From: Planctomycetota bacterium
GTDB taxonomy: Bacteria; Planctomycetota; UBA8108; SXIK01
Direction: 5' to 3'
NCBI GenBank assembly: GCA_965223265.1
Contig: OZ244999.1
Coordinates: 7,136,001 to 7,200,000, forward strand
DNA length: 64,000 nt
The notes under the pieces were generated by a model. The model was not told the DNA's origin. It did not search any database and saw only the letters and a list, made by a program, of their open reading frames with translations. Below are positions 48,514 through 57,493 of this stretch, one piece after another. Position 1 is the stretch's first letter. Each line of letters begins with the position of its first letter. The position numbers and the translations under genes were made by a program.

Positions 48514-50070
48514 ATGAAATCAGCATGGCAGGAGCTGTCGAGATGTTTGAACGCGTACTGCTGCGAGGGAGACGCCGGAAGCTGGCCTCGCGCTGAACGG
48601 CTACTGATTCAACTGCCGTTAGATGGCTCGTCACCGCTCGAACGAGTTCACCGCAGCGCACAGTTCCTTGCCTCGTTTGGGCACACCGACGAGGCTCATC
48701 GAGTCACCGAGCTGCACCGAAAGCATCATCAAAGGATTCGATTCGCCGCGCCGGGAAGTGCTGGGTGCGAAGTGCAGCGGACGACAATCTACGATGCGAT
48801 CCACCTGGGGATCCGTATGCAGCAGCAGCGCGGCAATCCAGGCCCCTCCGTCTCCTGGAGTCGCCTTGGCGGTATCGGTTGGGTGGAAAACCTTCGCCTC
48901 GCCCTGGCTCTTCGCACTCACGAGCACAGCCGCGTGCTCGAGTGTCTACGGTCGAAAGCCCATCTCACCAACTACGACATGGCCTGCAGGCTCTGCTTGT
49001 TGGCAAGGCACTACTTCCTCCGCGGACATCTGTCGCGTGGGCTCGGCCTCATACGGTCCGCGTACCGTCGATTAGCGAAGGATGAGTCATGCGACGCTGA
49101 GCTCCGCCGCACCGAATGCTGTGGACTGCAGGGCATGATCGCGCTTCAGGAGGGCAAGCTCGATCTCGCTGAGGACTTGTTCCGCACGACGATCCGCATG
49201 GCGACCGAGCTCAAGCACGAACAACAGATCGCCTACTATCGCCAAGAGTTGGCCGTGTCCTATTCGCGTCGTGGAGACTTCGACGAGGCTCGGGCACTCA
49301 TGTGCGACCTACTCGATCACTTGAACGCCACGGAGCCAAGGAGCGACGCGCAAAGGGTTCGACGTGCCGCGATCGAAATTTCAGCAGCGCAAATGGCGCT
49401 CGACCGTGGTGACGTCGAAGCTGCGCGACAGCACTATCGCGTCGCCCACGAAGCGTTCGCCGCGACGACCGAACCAGTGATCCAAGGTCACCTGGCTCTC
49501 CTTCGCGCGCGACTCCTCAAGGAGGAGGGTGCTGCGAGGCTCCCCCACGCGCTCGCAGAATTCCAGGCCGCTGAACATCTCTTCGGCGGTTTCGGCGACG
49601 GCCTGATCCTCGGACTCTTCCGCGTCTCTCTGCACCGGGCACACGCGCTGCTGAGGTTCGGAGAATTAGACGCGGCGATGACTGACGTGCTCCGCTGTCT
49701 CGAATACGCGCGCGAGCGCCGCTACTTTCCAGCGCGAGCCGCCGGATTGCTGCTGAAGACTCAACTGCTGCTGCAAAAACAAGGCGGTGCGAAAGTCGAC
49801 AGCATGTACGAGGAAGTGCTGAGGGGTCTCGGCGCCATCGCAAATCCACGCATCCTCTTTCGAGTCGTCGCCAACCTTTACCTGCACACCTGGGATCGTC
49901 AGGACGACCTCGAGCTAACCCAATACCACCTCGACCAGCTCCACGAGCTCAAGCGTTTTTTCGACGCGCGATCCTACGAACGCCTCTACACCCGCTACGT
50001 CACCATGCCGGTGCTGCATCGCGCGCTGGCGGAGGGATTCGGCGAGACGCCGATCGAGGTGGCGGAGTGA
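48514..50070 (+). CDS. TPR-like all-helical protein
   Basis: TPR-like segments such as GMIALQEGKLDLAEDLF, LAVSYSRRGDFDEARAL and AQMALDRGDVEAARQHY. Confidence 0.7.
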   Translation: MKSAWQELSRCLNAYCCEGDAGSWPRAERLLIQLPLDGSSPLERVHRSAQFLASFGHTDEAHRVTELHRKHHQRIRFAAPGSAGCEVQRTTIYDAIHLGIRMQQQRGNPGPSVSWSRLGGIGWVENLRLALALRTHEHSRVLECLRSKAHLTNYDMACRLCLLARHYFLRGHLSRGLGLIRSAYRRLAKDESCDAELRRTECCGLQGMIALQEGKLDLAEDLFRTTIRMATELKHEQQIAYYRQELAVSYSRRGDFDEARALMCDLLDHLNATEPRSDAQRVRRAAIEISAAQMALDRGDVEAARQHYRVAHEAFAATTEPVIQGHLALLRARLLKEEGAARLPHALAEFQAAEHLFGGFGDGLILGLFRVSLHRAHALLRFGELDAAMTDVLRCLEYARERRYFPARAAGLLLKTQLLLQKQGGAKVDSMYEEVLRGLGAIANPRILFRVVANLYLHTWDRQDDLELTQYHLDQLHELKRFFDARSYERLYTRYVTMPVLHRALAEGFGETPIEVAE

Positions 50071-50111
50071 CCGGGAACGACGCGTAGCGGGGCGACTGTC
50101 GCCGGGGGCGG

Positions 50112-50415
50112 TTTTGCGTTTGCGTTTGCGTGGGAGTGCACGCTTCTTCAGCGTAGCAGGCACACGGCGTGTGCCGTCCGGCCTTGTCGGCGTGCGCGTC
50201 GGCCGTTCCCGTGGGTGTGGGAGTCCGTGTGGGAGGGGGAGTGGGAGGGGGAGTGGGAGGGGGAGTGGGAGGGGGAGTCCGTGTGGGAGTGGGTGCGCGC
50301 CTCTTCAACGTGGCAGGCACACGCCGTGTGCCGTCCGGCCTTGTCGGCGTGCGCGTCGGCCGTTCCCGTGGGTGTGGGAGGCCGTGTGGGAGGCCGTGTG
50401 GGAGGCCGTGTGGGT
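50112..50415 (+). repeat. G-rich 6/12-mer tandem arrays plus two ~90-bp direct repeats carrying REP-like palindromes
   Basis: (TTTGCG)3, (GTGGGAGGGGGA)4 at 50229-50276 and (GTGGGAGGCCGT)3 at 50374-50409. GT(A/G)GCAGGCACACG(G/C)CGTGTGCC at 50153 and 50310. Confidence 0.9.
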
Positions 50416-50429
50416 TGGGGTCACCGTAC

Positions 50430-50473
50430 GGCGGCGGTCTTGTCGAGCGTACGCGGTGCTCGCGGGTGTGAAG
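50430..50473 (+). ncRNA. 5' part of conserved four-helix-bundle leader 1 (separated from the rest by the recombinase element)
   Basis: GGCGGCGGTCTTGTCGAGCGTA is 21/22 identical to the reverse complement of 54553-54574. The following arm (50452-50473) can pair with 53175-53197. Confidence 0.7.
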
Positions 50474-50574
50474 TCGAGCACACAATGCACCTCCAACCTT
50501 CCGCTGTCGTAAGTCCTTTCGGTGTAAGCCGACGTAATCTGACGAATCTTTGATACAACCCGGTCGATTTACCT

Positions 50575-52665
50575 TCATAGGTCGTCGAAGAGCGTCATCT
50601 GGTTCTTCGCGCAGCCCTCCTTAGGCGGGAATCGACCCGTCGCCTTGAGCGTCGCCACGAGGCTCCGGACTCCTGGGGAGTCCAGCTCGTGGCGAGAGAC
50701 GCGCCAGGGGGCGAACTCGGCGACTTGGTTTTTCCTGATCAATCCTCGTTCGACAAGCGTACGTAATGCTATCGAGGAAACTCCTAGGTACTTGCTGGCG
50801 CCGTTCATCGACAACGCATCATCGGAGGACTGCGCTGAATTGATACCGTTGTGTTTGCGAAATTCGGTCACCTTGTCTTTGGTCCACCGTGTGGTCGTGA
50901 GCCTTCGTCTGTTAAGCACTAAGGCAATCTCGCTGTCACTATGCGCCGCGGCGCTGAGCCGCTTGATCAGCTCGAGCACCGAAACTTCCCTTGATGCCTT
51001 CGGAGAGGGGAATCGCAACAGCTCGGAGGTAGAGTGTACGCCGCCCTTCCAGTGAATCGTCAATTCCAGGCGGCGACTTTGCCGATTGGATCCAACGAGC
51101 TCGCCGCTCTCCTTGATCATGATCTCGTGAATCGCTGCTCGCAGCAGAGTCTTCTTCAGCCTGACATCAATCGTCGATCGCCAGACCAACTGGAAGTTCC
51201 GTGCGAGAGTCTCGAGACGTTTTCGCTCTGCGACAGTCAACGTCAATCTCGACGACTGCTGCTTGTGGAGTGTCTCCTTTGCCTCGGCAAGCCGCTGAAG
51301 CTTGTCGTTGAGACGTTTCTCGAGGTTGTCCGCAACAAGGCGATTCCTCGGATCGCACGCGTCGAACTGTTCGAATGCATGACTGGCGGCGTACTGCGCA
51401 GCCTCGATCTGCTGCTTCGCGTAGTTCAACTCGTCGGCTCGGCTCTTCTCGATCTGCTCGAACGCCCTGGTCGCAGCCTCGATCCCCGAGGAGTCAAGCG
51501 CTCGACACAACTGCTGCGCGACGATCGGGTCAACGCGACATGCCCCAACAGAGAGACAAATGCGTGAGTTCCCCTTTCGTGTGCCGTCGCAGTAATAGAA
51601 GGCCTTCTCGTATCGGTACCGGACCTTCAGCTGATCGCCACAGTGACCACAACGCAACATCCCCGCCAGGAGAGCCTGGCCTTCCCGCGCGGCTCCTCGG
51701 TTGCCGTCGAGCCCTCTTCGCGGTCGATTCTGCGATAGCTTCTTCAAGTTCGCTTCGTACTCTGACCAATCGATGTAGGCTGGGTGATGGTCACGGATCA
51801 TCACCCGAGCTTCACCAGGATCTTGCCGACGTTCACGCTGTTTGACCAGCCTCCCATCGGCGATCTTGCTTGTCGTCCTTGAACGACCCCAAGCGTAGGC
51901 TCCAGCATAGGTCGGATTGACCAGGAGGTTGTGTAGCGACTTGGCCGACGGCACCGCCCACCTGACCGTCTTGTTGCCCAAGCCCCGACTCGGAAACTCG
52001 ATCCCCGCGTCTCGGTAATGCAATGCGAGCTGTCGGGCACTACTGGAGCCACGGAAGTCCTGAAAGACACGGCGGATCGCGGTACGGATTCTCTCGTCGG
52101 GATCGAAGACAATCTCAGTGTCGTCGTAGACGTAGCCGATCGGTAACTGAATCCACAGCTCACCTCGCTTCGCTTTCGCCTGCTGACCTAGGCGCAACCG
52201 CAAGCGAATCGTCGCAAGCTCGGCTTCTGAGATCGAGCCACGGATGCCGATCAACAGTCTGTCGTTAGAGAGCGACAGATCGTAGACCTGCTCGGTGTCC
52301 GCGATCAGCGTATTGAAGTGCTGACAAAGCTCCATCAGTCGCGCCCAGTCCACCGAATTCCTCGACAGTCGGGAAATCTCGAGACAGAAGATAATCCCGA
52401 CTTCCCCGGCAATGACCCAGCTCTTCAGTTTCTCGAAGCCGGGGCGATCGACGAATCCAGAAGCCGACTCGCCGAGATCGTCCTCGATGAGAATCGGCTC
52501 GCGCCAGCCAAGATCGACCGCCTTGTGCCTCAGTTCGCGTTGCAGGCGCGTGCTCTCTTCGTTGTTCTTCACCTGTGTTGGCGACGATTGACGAATGTAT
52601 ACTACTGCCGCGCGCCTGAGGTGCTCGGTAGTGACGCCACCTGGATGATTGCTATCGATCCTCAT
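50575..52665 (-). CDS. Large serine recombinase (resolvase + recombinase + Zn-ribbon + coiled coil + HTH)
   Basis: Catalytic AVVYIRQSS, DRPGF, EISRLSRN, NPTYAG, HHPAYI and LLAGMLRCGHCG. Confidence 0.92.
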   Translation of the reverse strand: MRIDSNHPGGVTTEHLRRAAVVYIRQSSPTQVKNNEESTRLQRELRHKAVDLGWREPILIEDDLGESASGFVDRPGFEKLKSWVIAGEVGIIFCLEISRLSRNSVDWARLMELCQHFNTLIADTEQVYDLSLSNDRLLIGIRGSISEAELATIRLRLRLGQQAKAKRGELWIQLPIGYVYDDTEIVFDPDERIRTAIRRVFQDFRGSSSARQLALHYRDAGIEFPSRGLGNKTVRWAVPSAKSLHNLLVNPTYAGAYAWGRSRTTSKIADGRLVKQRERRQDPGEARVMIRDHHPAYIDWSEYEANLKKLSQNRPRRGLDGNRGAAREGQALLAGMLRCGHCGDQLKVRYRYEKAFYYCDGTRKGNSRICLSVGACRVDPIVAQQLCRALDSSGIEAATRAFEQIEKSRADELNYAKQQIEAAQYAASHAFEQFDACDPRNRLVADNLEKRLNDKLQRLAEAKETLHKQQSSRLTLTVAERKRLETLARNFQLVWRSTIDVRLKKTLLRAAIHEIMIKESGELVGSNRQSRRLELTIHWKGGVHSTSELLRFPSPKASREVSVLELIKRLSAAAHSDSEIALVLNRRRLTTTRWTKDKVTEFRKHNGINSAQSSDDALSMNGASKYLGVSSIALRTLVERGLIRKNQVAEFAPWRVSRHELDSPGVRSLVATLKATGRFPPKEGCAKNQMTLFDDL

Positions 52666-52855
52666 CGTTCTCGCCCTCCACACCGTGGTTCTCGATGATC
52701 GCCTGCAGGAGAATCGCCACTGCCCGAGCGATTTCCTCCCGCTCCTTCGCGCTCAGCACTGCGAGCACGCTTTGATCTTCCGGCGGCAAGAACGGTAGAG
52801 TAAGCTGCGTCCACACCATCGTCCTCCTCCTTGGTTCGAGTTGGTTCTGAGTCAA
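52652..52855 (-). CDS. Small hypothetical protein of the recombinase element
   Basis: QLTLPF...EIARAVAILLQAI. Overlaps the recombinase start. Confidence 0.5.
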   Translation of the reverse strand: MTQNQLEPRRRTMVWTQLTLPFLPPEDQSVLAVLSAKEREEIARAVAILLQAIIENHGVEGENDEDR

Positions 52856-53111
52856 GGATGGACGATGGTGCTTCTTGGAGTCGAGACTCTACGATCGCCG
52901 CAATGACGAGGAGCTCCTCCACGTCGATGTGGGGCGATCTACACAGCTCCACCCACATAGCGCTCTCCTCGGTCATCCAGCACGGCACCAAGAGCTGGCG
53001 CTTCTCGATTTGAACCAAGTAGCAGGGCGGTTCTCTCGAGGTCCGCCGAACGACCGGCAGAGAGCGTCCCGCAAGGGGGTGGTAGGGATAGAAGACCGTT
53101 ACGGTCGTCAA
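52662..53111 (-). CDS. Y4bD/Y4pK (DUF5372)-like small protein
   Basis: VTVFYPYHPLAGRSLPVVRR...LVPCWMT, the pattern seen upstream of this recombinase class. Confidence 0.6.
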   Translation of the reverse strand: MTTVTVFYPYHPLAGRSLPVVRRTSREPPCYLVQIEKRQLLVPCWMTEESAMWVELCRSPHIDVEELLVIAAIVESRLQEAPSSILDSEPTRTKEEDDGVDAAYSTVLAAGRSKRARSAEREGAGGNRSGSGDSPAGDHREPRCGGRER

Positions 53112-53138
53112 ACCAACATCAGTGTGGGCTACCCGTGG

Positions 53139-53265
53139 TCAAGGGTGCCCTCGCTGCGCTCGGCGCTGCGCGCCCTTGACACCCACTCCGCTCCGCGTTG
53201 GGGGGTGGAGTACCGCCGCCCGGACGCGGCGGAGCTGTTCACTCTACGCTCTGCGGAGGTCTCCC
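53139..53265 (+). ncRNA. 3' part of conserved structured leader 1
   Basis: TCAAGGGTGCCCTCGCTGCGCTCGGCGCTGCGCGCC is 35/36 identical to leader 2. A nested hairpin GGGTGGAG..CCGCCGC-loop-GCGGCGG..TTCACTC precedes the GGAGG RBS. Confidence 0.75.
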
Positions 53266-53589
53266 ATGCGCTTCATCGCTCTTGATGTCAGTCTCGGTTT
53301 GATTCGCGACTTGCGGGCTCCATTGCTGCGACTTCGGAGGCTTGATCCAGATCTCCATCGGCAGATTCGGCGGGCTGCTTCTTCCGTCGCGCTCAATCTC
53401 TCGGAGGGTGCCGAGCGCGCTGGAAAGGATCGGCTGCACCTCTATCGCGTGGCGCGCGGCAGTGCCCGGGAAGTCGAGACTGCCCTGCAGCTCTCGGTGG
53501 CCTGGGGCGATCTCAAGACCGAAGACGTCTCAGTGCCTCTGCAGACCCTCGATCGACTCCTGGCTCTTCTCAGCGGACTCACGCGCTGA
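53266..53589 (+). CDS. Four-helix-bundle protein (TIGR02436 / 23S-IVP / Avd-like), 107 aa
   Basis: QIRRAASSVALNLSEG..R....R..LYRVARGSAREV signature. Confidence 0.9.
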   Translation: MRFIALDVSLGLIRDLRAPLLRLRRLDPDLHRQIRRAASSVALNLSEGAERAGKDRLHLYRVARGSAREVETALQLSVAWGDLKTEDVSVPLQTLDRLLALLSGLTR

Positions 53590-53601
53590 GCGAGGCGCCC
53601 A

Positions 53602-53629
53602 AGCGCCCGCTACTTTCGTAGCGGGCGCT
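53602..53629 (+). terminator. 3' hairpin after four-helix-bundle gene 1
   Basis: Perfect 12-bp stem AGCGCCCGCTAC-TTTC-GTAGCGGGCGCT. No U tract. Confidence 0.5.
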
Positions 53630-53641
53630 GCTCACGGCGCT

Positions 53642-54021
53642 TCCGACTTCTGTATCTGGCCCTGTCTCCGTCATCCGAGTCCGTCTCTGGCTCTGCATCT
53701 GTATCTGTGTCTGTCGCTGACTCTGTCATCTGCTTCTGTATCTCTATCCGTCATCCGTCTCTGATTCCGTCTCTGTCCCCAACGTTGCAAAAGAGACGCG
53801 CCTTAAGACCGTGCGCGATTGCGATTGAGTGAGAGTTTGCGTGTACGTCTGCGTGTGGGTGTGCGTGGGCGAGGGGAACACGGCACACCGTCAACCTCAC
53901 CAAACGTGAGGTCCGCCACGACGTCCCTCAACTGCCGATCGAACCTCAGGGAAAGGGTTTCTGAGCCCTTCCTGCGAAAACTTATGCAACTGTCGGGTCT
54001 GTCTCTGCCTCCGGTTCCGCC
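53642..54021. repeat. Degenerate hexamer tracts between the convergent genes
   Basis: TCYGNN hexamers at 53642-53777 and 53998-54021. GTGYGT-type hexamers at 53818-53876. Confidence 0.75.
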
Positions 54022-54026
54022 TCAAA

Positions 54027-54052
54027 CCCGCCGCGCGAAAAAGCACGGCGGG
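54027..54052 (-). terminator. 3' hairpin after four-helix-bundle gene 2
   Basis: On the minus strand, CCCGCCGTGC-TTTTTC-GCGCGGCGGG lies 15 nt after the stop. Confidence 0.5.
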
Positions 54053-54067
54053 CCCAAGACCGCAACC

Positions 54068-54391
54068 TCAGCGCGTCAGCTTCCAAAGCATCGCCTGCAG
54101 CTCGTCGATGTCCGCAAGCACCGAAGCTGTCTCCTGCGCATCGACGTAGCCCCAAGCCTCAGCAACACAAAGCGCCGTACGCACCTCTTCGGCACTGCCT
54201 GAGGCAACACGCCAGAGATGCCCGCGGTCACGACCAGAGCGCCGATTGCCCTCGCCCAAATTCAGCGCCACGGAGGACCCCGCGTCGCGCAGCTGAGCGG
54301 CAAGCTTCGAGTCGTGACGACGCACACGCGAGACAAGCGGACGCAACTGACGAACGATACCAACAGAGTGATCCAAAGCGAGAAAGCCCAT
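54068..54391 (-). CDS. Four-helix-bundle protein (TIGR02436 / 23S-IVP / Avd-like), 107 aa
   Basis: QLRDAGSSVALNLGEG..R....R..LWRVASGSAEEV. Start is ATG 54391 with a GGAG RBS, colinear with gene 1. Confidence 0.9.
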   Translation of the reverse strand: MGFLALDHSVGIVRQLRPLVSRVRRHDSKLAAQLRDAGSSVALNLGEGNRRSGRDRGHLWRVASGSAEEVRTALCVAEAWGYVDAQETASVLADIDELQAMLWKLTR

Positions 54392-54574
54392 GAGAAGACT
54401 CCGGTCAACCGGTTGAGTGAAACTCTCGCCGCACGCCCGACGCGGCGGCGTTTCACCCCCGCCAACGGAAGCAGAGCCGGGTGCGGTCACTCTCAGAAGG
54501 CGCGAAGCGCCGAGCGCAGCGAGGGCACCCTTGAGGCCGGCTCTGCTTCCGTTACGCTCGACAATACCGCCGCC
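54392..54574 (-). ncRNA. Conserved structured leader 2 (uninterrupted, ~183 nt)
   Basis: 22-nt motif at 54553-54574. A 17-bp perfect inverted repeat (54464-54480/54537-54553) encloses the 36-nt motif at 54499-54534. Nested hairpin at about 54414-54458. Confidence 0.75.
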
Positions 54575-54603
54575 GCAAACGCCCCTTGGCGGCACACCTC
54601 TTC

Positions 54604-54923
54604 TCTGCTTCTGTCTCTGCTTCTGTCTCTGCTTCTGTCTCTGCTTCTGTCTCTGCTTCTGTCTCTGCTTCTGTCTCTGCTTCTGTCTCTGCTTCTGTCT
54701 CTGCTTCTGTCTCTGCTTCTGTCTCTGCTTCTGTCTCTGATTCTGTCTCTGATTCTGTCTCTGATTCTGTCTCTGATTCTGTCTCTGCTTCTGTCTCTGC
54801 TTCTGTCTCTGCTTCTGTCTCTGCTTCTGTCTCTGCTTCTGTCTCTGATTCTGTCTCTGATTCTGTCTCTGATTCTGTCTCTGATTCTGTCTCTGATTCT
54901 GTCTCTGATTCTGTCTCTGATTC
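54604..54923. repeat. Perfect 12-bp tandem array, ~27 units of two variants
   Basis: TCTGCTTCTGTC x11, TCTGATTCTGTC x4, TCTGCTTCTGTC x5, TCTGATTCTGTC x~7. Confidence 0.97.
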
Positions 54924-55099
54924 GCCACCGCTCGCCGTTTCGCTGCGGTCGCAGGGTGGAAGGCCTCTTCGCACGTGTTAGCATGGGCGCGTCCCCGAAT
55001 GTTCGGGAGCGGGCGCGGCTTTCCAAGCCAAAACGCATCGCTGTGACTCGTAGCCGCTGAACGCAAGTTCGACGTTCGTCTTCCAGCAAGCGACTTTTT

Positions 55100-57493
55100 A
55101 TGCGTCTCAAGTTTCCCCCAAGCCTTCTCGCCGCCGCGGTGCTGCTTCTCATGGGAGCGCTGGCTGCGGCGGAGTCTGCACCCCCTTCCCAGGCGCCTCG
55201 ACCGCTCCTGACACCGTTCGTGGAGACCTACTGCCAGCAGTGCCACGACGCAACCGGCCGGACCGCAGGGCTCGCCCTTGACGAGCTGCTTTCCGCCCCA
55301 ATGGAGGAGCATGTCGCGGAGTGGGAGTCGGTCGTCCGCAAACTCACAACGCGTCAGATGCCACCGCAGGATATGCCTCGGCCGGACGAAACGAGCTACG
55401 AGGCGATCTTGCTCCTGCTCACCTCTGAACTCGACGCAGCCGCCGAGCGTCAGCCGCGGACGGGACGTACGGAGTCACTGCGCCGTTTGAGCCGCACGGA
55501 ATACCACAACGCGATTCGCGATCTGCTGGGTTTGGAGGTGGACGTCAGCACGCTTGTTCCCGGCGACGAGTCGAGCCACGGGTTCGATCACATCACGGTG
55601 ACCGGTCTCAGCCCGATGCTGTTAAGTCGCTACATTTCCGCAGCGCAGAGAATCAGCCGCTTGGCAGTAGGCAACCCAGGGTGGGGAACTGGAGGCGACA
55701 CATTTCGAATTCGACCCGATATCACGCAAGACAACCACCGTGTGGAAGGGCTGCCTCTCGGAACACGAGGCGGCACGTTGATCCGCTACAACTTCCCGCA
55801 AGACGGCGAATACGACGTCCAGGTTTGGTTGATGCGAGATCGGAACGATGAAATCGAAGGCCTTCGAGACAAACACGAATTGGAAGTGCTGCTCGACCGT
55901 GAGCGCAAGGCGACATTCACCGTCGCGCCTGCGCCGCGCGGCCAAAGCGACCGCATGGTCGATGCGCATCTCAAAGCTCGACTCACGGTTCAGGCCGGGC
56001 CACACGACTTAGGCGTCACGTTCGTCAAGAAGCCCTCCTCGCTGCTGGAAAGCGAACGGCAGCCATTGAATGTGCACTACAACTACTACCGACACCCGCG
56101 TCTCGGACCCGCCGTCTACCAAGTCTCGGTCATCGGTCCTTTTCAGGCGAGCGGCCCGGGTGACACGCCGAGTCGCAGGCGCATCTTCGCGTGTCGGCCG
56201 GTCGGTTCCGAGGACGAAGACGCCTGCGCTCGTCGCATCCTGACGCGGCTGTTGCGTCGTGCCTATCGCCGGCCGGTAACTGAAGACGACCTCGAGACGC
56301 CGATGAAGTTCTTCTCGGCTGGCCGCGCGGGCGGATTCGACGTGGGAATCGAGCGTGCGCTAGCCGCGATCCTGGTGAATCCCAATTTTCTGTTCCGCAC
56401 AGAACGGCAGCCGGCGAACGCACGAGCGAACCGCCCCTACCGGATCAGTGATCTGGAAATGGCGTCTCGGTTGTCTTTCTTCTTATGGAGCAGCATTCCA
56501 GACGACGAGCTGCTACAGGTGGCGACACGTCAAGAGTTGAGCCGCGGCGAAGTGCTCGAGCAGCAGGTGCGAAGGATGCTCGTGGATGAACGGTCCCGGT
56601 CACTCGTGACGAACTTCGCCGACCAGTGGCTCTATCTGCGAAATCTCGCCTCGTTTGTGCCGGACGCGCGCCTTTATCCGGACTTCGGTCATAACCTACG
56701 TGACGCCTTTCGGCGGGAAACGGAGTCACTGTTCGAGCAAATGATGCGCGAGGACCAAAGCGTCCTGGTTTTGCTCGATTCACCTGCGACCTATTTGAAT
56801 GAACGACTCGCTCGGCACTATGGAATTCCGCATGTCTATGGCAGCCGGTTCCGGCGCGTGTTGTTGGATGAACGAAGCCGGCGCGGCGGAATCCTGCGGC
56901 ACGGCAGCATTTTGTCGGTCACGTCCTACGCAACGCGCACCTCCCCAGTGATTCGAGGTCAATGGATCCTTGAAAACCTGCTGGGCACACCGCCACCCCC
57001 GCCGCCAGCGAACGTTCCAGATCTGGAGGATCATACGGTCGCGGCTCACCTCACGGTACGCGAGCGTCTGGCTCGACATCGCGCCGACGCCGCATGCGCG
57101 CCTTGTCACGACGTGATCGATCCGGTCGGCTTCGGGCTCGAGAACTTCGATGCCGTCGGGCGCTGGCGGGAATCGGAATTGGGCCAACCAGTCGACGCTT
57201 CAGGCGGGTTGCCGGATGGAAGTGAATTCGACGGGATCAGCGGGCTGGAACGCGCGCTGCTCGAACGTCCTGAGTTGTTCGTCCAGACCATGACGGAGAA
57301 ACTGATGACTTTCGCGCTCGGACGCGGCGTCGAGTACTACGACGCGCCAGCGGTTCGCCGCATCCTTCGCCGTGCCAGGCGAGCGAACTATCGTTTCTCT
57401 TCTCTGATTCTAGGAATCGTCAACAGCACACCTTTTCAGATGAGGATGGCGGCTGACCAGGATGCCGAGAGCCCTGAAGACGCCGAGGGCTGA
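55100..57493 (+). CDS. Planctomycete cytochrome-c/PSD-domain protein (DUF1587/1592/1595/1588/1585-type)
   Basis: Signal peptide, CQQCH, RRLSRTEYHNAIRDLLG, ASRLSFFLWSSIPD, TSPVIRG and CAPCH. Confidence 0.88.
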   Translation: MRLKFPPSLLAAAVLLLMGALAAAESAPPSQAPRPLLTPFVETYCQQCHDATGRTAGLALDELLSAPMEEHVAEWESVVRKLTTRQMPPQDMPRPDETSYEAILLLLTSELDAAAERQPRTGRTESLRRLSRTEYHNAIRDLLGLEVDVSTLVPGDESSHGFDHITVTGLSPMLLSRYISAAQRISRLAVGNPGWGTGGDTFRIRPDITQDNHRVEGLPLGTRGGTLIRYNFPQDGEYDVQVWLMRDRNDEIEGLRDKHELEVLLDRERKATFTVAPAPRGQSDRMVDAHLKARLTVQAGPHDLGVTFVKKPSSLLESERQPLNVHYNYYRHPRLGPAVYQVSVIGPFQASGPGDTPSRRRIFACRPVGSEDEDACARRILTRLLRRAYRRPVTEDDLETPMKFFSAGRAGGFDVGIERALAAILVNPNFLFRTERQPANARANRPYRISDLEMASRLSFFLWSSIPDDELLQVATRQELSRGEVLEQQVRRMLVDERSRSLVTNFADQWLYLRNLASFVPDARLYPDFGHNLRDAFRRETESLFEQMMREDQSVLVLLDSPATYLNERLARHYGIPHVYGSRFRRVLLDERSRRGGILRHGSILSVTSYATRTSPVIRGQWILENLLGTPPPPPPANVPDLEDHTVAAHLTVRERLARHRADAACAPCHDVIDPVGFGLENFDAVGRWRESELGQPVDASGGLPDGSEFDGISGLERALLERPELFVQTMTEKLMTFALGRGVEYYDAPAVRRILRRARRANYRFSSLILGIVNSTPFQMRMAADQDAESPEDAEG

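Follow-up and report, generated by a model that had tools for sequence, protein, structure and literature searches.

What are two small convergent genes doing behind the same set of non-coding sequences, at positions 50112..54923 of a 64,000-nt window of planctomycete DNA? The window is the whole stretch that was analysed, and coordinates refer to it unless they carry the prefix G000:C1; its genome, G000, is a single 9.18-Mb contig of 60.8% G+C. A sequence-only reading of the locus described two cassettes, each made of a tandem-repeat array, a conserved structured leader RNA, a four-helix-bundle gene and a 3' hairpin, and took them for a ribonucleoprotein or mobile cassette with no named counterpart. 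That observation is confirmed in part and its interpretation is supported in part. It is well supported that a family of small cassettes, present in many copies and in two diverged paralogue types, has one of its sites at this locus, each cassette consisting of a ~160-nt structured leader, a 107-aa PF05635 gene and a 3' hairpin, inside six-base-periodic arrays. The family is apparently undescribed and common to two bacterial phyla; our literature searches did not find the leader or the cassette layout described.

Both open reading frames (ORFs) encode 107 aa and belong, as first claimed, to the four-helix-bundle family, with matches above cut-off to PF05635 (51 and 54 bits; cut-off 33.8) and TIGR02436 (52.2 and 56.3 bits; cut-off 24), and the two proteins are about half identical (55/107 residues, 51%). 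A PF05635 profile search of the genome gave 38 matches, with 36 intact 107-aa genes that divide into 17 of type A (MGFLALDH...) and 19 of type B (MRFIALDV...). Together with four decayed cassettes (one frameshift, one internal deletion and two truncations), the genome holds a total of ~40. Seven convergent A/B pairs have gaps of 264-488 nt between the genes, and the remaining cassettes are single. The median ratio of nonsynonymous to synonymous change (dN/dS) is 0.14 among the type A copies and 0.13 among the type B copies, showing that the proteins are under purifying selection. The entire composite, arrays included, recurs in the same order and with unrelated flanks at G000:C1:8302785-8304914.

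The leader travels with the gene. A covariance model of the leader has 41 matches in the genome at E<1e-5, and 40 of these lie at intact or decayed genes of the family; hence the leader is not a generic repetitive extragenic palindromic (REP) sequence or insertion sequence (IS) end, although that description does hold for the arrays and for a REP-like hairpin at the locus. By gene, the leader is matched at 35 of the 36 intact copies, the remaining one having lost the hairpin; the matches include five at genes whose leader bears an insertion, four at decayed cassettes and one weak orphan.

Outside this genome, the family is patchy in Planctomycetota and common in metagenome-assembled genomes (MAGs) of Myxococcota, a distribution that is again well supported. 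PF05635 was found in 6 of 40 relatives searched, with 13 matches in one genome of the same order and none in three genomes of the same family. The same-order genome shares the array-leader-gene layout and keeps the loop core; among 150 further Planctomycetota that were sampled, only 4 have the leader. Scanning species genomes with a pattern brought up 80 loci, most of them in Myxococcota MAGs, and the leader model gave 78 matches within these at E<=0.01, of which 59 score above 34 bits. At least 14 loci are tight convergent pairs with a leader of its own for each gene, and a few pairs are divergent. The Myxococcota leaders keep the arms and the TCAAGG/CCTTGA top of the stem, carry a conserved GTGCTCG...CT(G/C)CGCGC segment, and have two or three short hairpins in place of the apex.

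Other leaders were met in the same searches. In Myxococcota, relatives with a second leader type (L029, L030, L032, L033, L035, L038, L040 and L049) and with a third (L037, L042, L048, L059 and L060) stand behind hexamer arrays, and the L029-type and L037-type leaders carry different conserved hairpins. Another planctomycete, G155, has 17 identical weak matches to the leader model (38.6 bits) on several contigs, probably an unrelated repeat.

Is the leader structured, as had been proposed? In uninterrupted leaders a long hairpin, P1, has arms that vary among copies yet stay complementary, below a constant top, TCAAGG...CCTTGA. We aligned P1 in 39 of the 50 unique anchor-bearing leaders from G000, a second planctomycete and Myxococcota; left out were six further G000 copies, L046, L050, one copy from the second planctomycete, and the long-apex loci L061 and L072. 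Over 24 pairs, 86.1% of 936 cells are paired, compared with 27-47% when the 3' partner is slid by 1-3 columns, and in 18 of the 24 pairs both sides have changed. In the outer stem, type A is offset by one in its register, which explains many of the unpaired cells. Covariation scores 0.449, compared with 0.03-0.11 for the slid alignments, and 0 of 500 shuffles reached as much; the count of further pair types lies within the shuffle range (290 of 500). RNAalifold recovers 16 pairs, 11 with compensatory changes, so that both approaches uphold a conserved, structured leader. Single-sequence folds give z-scores of -2.6 and -2.2, the type A leader folding at -95.7 kcal/mol (z -2.6). One P1 pair is a conserved U.G wobble (20 UG, 6 GU), and P1 overall has 69 G.U against 33 A.C combinations, which favours a single strand that folds on its own.

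Motif 1, a conserved segment at the leader's 5' end, pairs with the 5' side of a second hairpin in one minimum-free-energy fold, and both sides are nearly invariant in this genome. Rfam 15 gave no match at E<=1 in 49500-55500, rRNA families included, and none at E<=0.1 in seven related loci; no described RNA family was matched in the region. Two further ideas about the leader were dropped. Motif 2, which spans the top and apical loop of P1, was rejected as coding sequence, as its reading frame would differ between the two cassettes. Canonical cUUCGg tetraloops were considered as a mark of RNA; inspected by eye, the apical hairpins prove to be palindromes centred on 3 nt, TTC or TGC, and hence do not tell RNA from DNA.

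At the locus itself, the parts are arranged as follows.

50112..50431 (+): flank on the type B side, with (GCGTTT)n, GTGGGAG-type 12-mer arrays and two REP-like hairpins
50153-50179, with a variant at 50310-50336: REP-like hairpin GTAGCAGGCAC..GTGCCGTCC
50229-50293 and 50372-50414: the GTGGGAG-type 12-mer arrays of this flank
50432..50470 (+): 5' part of the type B leader, with motif 1 (50432-50453) and the true 5' arm of P1 (50454-50470)
50471..53139 (+/-2) (-): inserted serine-recombinase element
53140..53265 (+): 3' part of the type B leader, with motif 2 (53140-53175, +), 3' arm (53176-53199), second hairpin (~53213-53232) and ribosome-binding site (RBS) GGAGG (53255-53259)
53266..53589 (+): type B four-helix-bundle gene, 107 aa
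53602..53629 (+): 3' hairpin of the type B gene, AGCGCCCGCTAC-TTTC-GTAGCGGGCGCT, without a T run after it
53640..54020: spacer between the convergent genes, with a degenerate NNTCTG array (53692-53748) and a shared spacer module
~54026..54053 (-): 3' hairpin of the type A gene, CCCGCCG..CGGCGGG with a T-rich loop, then TTTGA
54068..54391 (-): type A four-helix-bundle gene, 107 aa
54392..54580 (-): intact type A leader, with motif 1 (54553-54574), 5' arm, motif 2 (54499-54534), 3' arm, second hairpin and RBS
54602..54923 (+): 12-mer array TCTCTGCTTCTG x26.8, which reads CAGAGACAGAAG in the sense of the type A gene

Between the two cassettes, motif 1 is identical at 21/22 positions and motif 2 at 35/36, as first reported, and motif 2 has 22 exact copies in the genome, well above what chance would give. 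The leader model matches the type B leader at 53107-53268 (81.6 bits) and the type A leader at 54389-54566 (68.3 bits). The coding sequences of types A and B share 54% nucleotide identity with a synonymous divergence (dS) of ~2.2, so the non-coding core does outdo the coding sequence in conservation, and since synonymous sites between A and B are saturated, the 36-nt motif is far better kept than neutral sequence. The shared gene ends (...ACGCGCTGA), each followed by a GC-rich hairpin, were likewise borne out, and the type B 3' hairpin is kept in related type B copies. The spacer module of the convergent pair contains short GCGTNN repeats and hairpins; its motifs have 13 and 15 genome copies, six of each within 1.5 kb of a four-helix-bundle gene. 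Protein genes flank the locus, and planctomycete PSD-domain genes adjoin it.

The same module order had been described for both cassettes. It is intact in type A, but the type B cassette is cut by an insertion of 2,670 bp (by the boundaries we set, +/-2, around a GT core), which parts motif 1 and the true 5' arm, the latter assigned by comparison with uninterrupted type B leaders, from motif 2. Hence what had been taken for a variable 5' arm beside motif 2 is really the end of the inserted element. The element encodes a large serine recombinase of 702 aa at 50575-52683(-), with resolvase, recombinase and zinc-ribbon domains (PF00239, PF07508 and PF13408), and small ORFs at 52652-52855 and 52662-53111. 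Six copies of the element are present in the genome, each of 2,670 bp with a recombinase protein 100% identical, the others lying in G000:C1 near 2581359, 6779239, 8598309, 8835856 and 8980044. All six interrupt type B leaders at one and the same GT dinucleotide, and they have four different left flanks, which makes them separate insertions. An intact type B gene follows in five of the six; in the sixth, leader and gene are partly deleted.

The junctions fit an attB of ..CT-GT-CAAGG and an attP of ..CCCGTG-GT-GAAGTC, giving an attL of ..CT-GT-GAAGTCGAG and an attR of ..CCCGTG-GT-CAAGG. The type B leader serves as the element's attachment site, and from the junctions we infer a crossover at the GT core. 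The element is minimal, with the recombinase and one or two small ORFs but without cargo, and it appears to be an active, site-specific integrase; because its attachment site is a multi-copy repeat it behaves like an insertion sequence. A recombinase element with a defined attB/attP pair is worth attention in its own right. Another large serine recombinase, which shares 37% identity with that of the element, is present in the genome in two identical copies (G000:C1:2468728-2470290 and 6104550-6106112).

The arrays are bound to the cassettes by position and by polarity. Six-base-periodic arrays of two unit families, CAGANN and ACGCNN, flank the cassettes on both sides, and an array lies within 1 kb of 33/36 genes compared with 4.3% of random windows. 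Type A runs in the same sense as CAGANN/ACGCNN (25:2) and type B in the opposite sense (22:1). Outside G000, 32/53 leaders have an array of period 6, 12 or 7 within 250 nt upstream, with C-R-G-A-N-N in the sense direction for one partner of a pair and antisense for the other. This strict polarity ties the PF05635 family to unexplained short tandem intergenic repeats. Neighbouring arrays mostly share one polarity (41/50), a rare exception being the gene-less inverted arrays at G000:C1:805056-805566, where 264 nt of CAGANN and 165 nt of NNTCTG stand 83 nt apart. Among eight further PF05635 loci from other lineages, most have short tandem repeats beside the gene, and one Peribacteria locus has inverted 9-mers on its two sides.

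Other repeats share these surroundings. At G000:C1:490676-496072 and 5868154-5871825, tandem ~1.7-kb IS110-like units, whose transposase (~407 aa) was named by eye from its DEDD-type N-terminus, have CAGANN arrays at each boundary; the arrays are thus landing sites for other mobile elements too. A 198-nt unit in three tandem copies (L094:1-600, G000:C1:403700-404300) lies just upstream of a type A cassette; it holds the leader-loop 14-mer CTCGCTGCGCTCGG and is also found beside an IS110-like element. Of the 167 genome copies of the REP-like hairpin, about half have an array within 500 nt, and 42 are found no more than 1.5 kb from a four-helix-bundle gene.

What kind of protein does the cassette encode? 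The predicted structure of type A has four helices (mean pLDDT, the predicted local distance difference test, 93.6), and its fold matches are 2RLD (template-modelling score, TM, 0.89), Avd of the diversity-generating retroelement (DGR) particle (TM 0.84), free Avd (TM 0.81) and 2GSC (TM 0.80). The fold shared with Avd, as first suggested, is therefore upheld by TM scores of 0.81-0.84, at ~10% sequence identity to Avd; 2GSC is also matched by sequence (E 3e-10). 2GSC and Avd are homopentamers. To our knowledge, no function is known outside DGRs for PF05635/TIGR02436, a very large family that includes solved structures. Residues R35, S40, N44 and E47 are invariant in 23 aligned members, and their spacing is one residue off the published family motif GxxRxxxSxxxNxxE (PMC3936711). 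PF05635 ORFs are also found between cas genes (PMC3936711). Reading the R-x-G-x-D-R-x-H stretch as a HEPN-type Rx4-6H motif was dropped, as the histidine is absent in the aligned 2GSC.

In light of these findings, what might the cassette be? We tentatively favour a selfish cassette, related to the ORF-bearing intervening sequences (IVS) of 23S rRNA, in which an Avd-like pentamer binds the leader RNA of its own gene; we hold this to be possible, if not yet probable. On this view the four-helix-bundle gene would be transcribed with the leader as its 5' untranslated RNA, and the putatively pentameric product would bind the long, sequence-conserved P1 of its own transcript, as Avd does on the DGR RNA stem-loop. 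Such binding could control the product's own translation or processing. The ~25-bp stem is long enough in principle for RNase III and would be a plausible site for it, freeing a translatable mRNA from read-through transcripts. The arrays, for their part, may be further periodic protein-binding sites, and may supply homology for copying of the cassette between array loci. That the copies are multiple, patchy and decaying fits a selfish or mobile cassette, as first proposed; what did not stand in that proposal is the array as a private module, the arrays being genome-wide. A covarying leader that travels with its gene across two phyla offers a concrete candidate partner for the protein and a candidate new RNA family.

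Several observations weigh against this reading. As to the RNA, the sense strand of P1 is the stabler in only 31 of 59 leaders (Wilcoxon p 0.45), and the TCAAGG/CCTTGA stem top is kept in sequence as well as in pairing, which a DNA-binding site fits too. The second hairpin has weak support in the Myxococcota rows (74% paired against 49-64% when shifted), a terminator scan called no cassette hairpin, and a sigma-70 scan of 50000-55100 found no promoter-like site. As to the arrays, a pair has them in direct and not in inverted orientation on its two sides, so an IVS-style arm-gene-arm hairpin is absent here. Real as they are at the locus, they are not specific to the cassette as had been claimed, since the genome's 201 six-base-periodic arrays include 149 whose distance to the nearest cassette gene exceeds 5 kb. 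Their other residents are the IS110-like transposase units, the REP-like hairpin and the 198-nt tandem unit, and the arrays may be just a habitat for elements. As to descent, a quick protein tree, in which six garbled translations were left out, 12 of 53 matches lacked an ORF and the careful search is unfinished, groups types A and B with the second planctomycete as a single clade and assigns the two Myxococcota partner types to separate clades; orthology of types A and B to those two partner types is thus unsupported. No empty orthologous site was found, as the flanking genes are non-syntenic in the nearest genome, where their relatives (61% and 35% identity) are 0.8 Mb apart and so leave no orthologous site.

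How much of this could an ordinary regulatory RNA explain? The leader might be a riboswitch, an RNase III site or an mRNA stabiliser that acts in cis without the encoded protein, with the genes domesticated host paralogues and the arrays mere background. A covarying multi-stem structure directly upstream of the RBS, strong purifying selection on the proteins and the genome-wide occurrence of arrays all agree with this. We nevertheless consider it rather unlikely: 40 copies, four of them decaying, patchy both across and within phyla, would be unusual for a host regulon; an apex of one loop in some leaders and of two or three hairpins in others does not resemble a ligand pocket; and the link between array and cassette, with its polarity rule, recurs in the second phylum.

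The hairpins might instead act as DNA, the leader being the end of a non-autonomous mobile element, with a subterminal hairpin or inverted repeat for a recombinase in trans to recognise, and, in a convergent pair, the two leaders being its terminal inverted repeats. Paired leaders do face each other like such repeats, being ~78% identical over 155 nt, and because both strands of P1 fold equally well, P1 could work in DNA form, either single-stranded or as a palindromic site; the stem top is kept in sequence across two phyla. The composite is duplicated with its arrays at another locus between unrelated flanks, and the leader site is, to judge by the junctions of the inserted element, demonstrably recognised as DNA by a recombinase. 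However, the cassette has no transposase, and the serine recombinase disrupts it and does not bound it; single cassettes have only one such end; and target-site duplications are not visible. The leader also keeps a fixed distance to the RBS and start codon, with the second hairpin beside the RBS, and the conserved U.G wobble would be an A.C mismatch on the opposite strand. On balance, a DNA element of this kind is distinctly unlikely.

Dependence on a retroelement, with the Avd-like protein working with a reverse transcriptase in trans, the leader as template or primer RNA and the arrays as products of reiterative copying, like the microsatellite tails of retrotransposons, seems very unlikely to us. 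It would draw on the Avd fold, on the heterogeneous short-unit arrays at the cassette borders and on four identical reverse-transcriptase genes of 449-455 aa (G000:C1:1895554, 3424405, 3516453 and 5913461), and Avd is an obligatory, RNA-binding partner of reverse transcriptase (bioRxiv 10.1101/2023.10.23.563531). Yet no DGR reverse transcriptase, nor any other, stands near a cassette: the genome's PF00078 matches, at 1.90, 3.42, 3.52 and 5.91 Mb, are all >1 Mb from the window (7.14-7.20 Mb). The arrays on the two sides share one polarity and differ in unit family, unlike symmetric end-copying, and most arrays have no cassette. A self-BLAST of 49000-56500 (hits of at least 120 nt) returned only repeats of the cassette, arrays, spacer and recombinase element, no search having been aimed at template or variable repeats. 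By their size and identical copies, the four genes are probably one group II intron or retroelement. Finally, an origin of the shared motifs by chance, or from a generic REP or IS end unrelated to the genes, draws on the generic repeats nearby (the 167-copy REP-like hairpin and the 201 arrays) and holds only for these; for the leader it is already refuted, with 40/41 matches at gene-bearing or decayed cassettes, covariation, and conservation with the gene in another phylum.

How, then, does the selfish, leader-binding cassette that we favour compare with known systems? Cyanobacterial short tandemly repeated repetitive (STRR) sequences are a familiar example of short tandem intergenic repeats. 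With these and with REP sequences and bacterial interspersed mosaic elements (BIME), the locus shares dispersed intergenic hairpins, short-period arrays drawn from few unit families and the landing of mobile elements; the difference is that the leader and gene form a discrete protein-coding unit with a covarying structure, only the arrays and the 167-copy hairpin being REP-like. The inserted element has the domains, the single-site insertion and the junctions compatible with a 2-bp core of the large serine recombinases (phage integrases, CcrAB and XisF). It differs from the integrative elements of that group in being minimal and multi-copy, with a target, the type B leader, that is itself a repeat.

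Avd (PDB 4DWL and 8UB7) has the same four-helix-bundle fold and binds a stem-loop encoded beside its own gene. In the Avd pentamer, all five protomers take hold of an 11-bp stem-loop in the RNA of the retroelement that encodes it (bioRxiv 10.1101/2023.10.23.563531), which makes a particle of protein and cis-encoded RNA reasonable to suppose here as well. The cassette proteins, at ~10% sequence identity to Avd, have as closest solved relatives the free-standing 2RLD and 2GSC, proteins of unknown function.

The closest likeness is to the 23S rRNA IVS, known from Coxiella burnetii and Leptospira, which bear the S23p ORF. The first claim that no named system has this architecture holds in that the leader is in no Rfam family, but it overlooks these ORF-bearing sequences. 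The Coxiella IVS has its S23p ORF behind GACAGAT repeats and is cut by RNase III (PMC4990558), and PF05635 ORFs occur in the rRNA insertion sites of candidate phyla radiation (CPR) bacteria, alongside homing-endonuclease ORFs (bioRxiv 10.1101/2024.02.27.582315). The IVS and the cassette share a PF05635 protein, a small selfish unit, a long RNA stem and the lack of a recombinase of their own, and both have CAGA-containing tandem repeats directly before the ORF, GACAGAT in Coxiella and CAGANN here (PMC4990558). They differ in that the cassette lies outside rRNA, between protein genes; in that P1, its long stem, is complete upstream of the ORF and leaves the ORF outside; and in that it has a multi-part leader, an RBS and a 3' hairpin of its own, with ~40 copies, two types and convergent pairs. 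As it is outside rRNA and its stem encloses no ORF, we do not file the cassette as a member of the IVS.

A bolder reading, which we offer as speculation and think unlikely, is that PF05635 cassettes are an unrecognised class of transposase-less selfish ribonucleoproteins, whose Avd-like pentamer would bind both the leader hairpin and the flanking short-period C-R-G-A repeats and would in this way promote copying of the cassette from one dispersed array to another, a homing-like spread through recombination. If so, each of the two paralogue types would read a single strand of these repeats; short tandem intergenic repeats of a kind so far unexplained, which several phyla possess, would be accounted for; and the 23S rRNA IVS would be the special case that had landed in rRNA. 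Short of that, given the same protein family, the RNase III excision and GACAGAT repeats of Coxiella, and the PF05635 ORFs in rRNA insertions, the cassette behaves like a selfish element related to the ORF-bearing 23S rRNA IVS.

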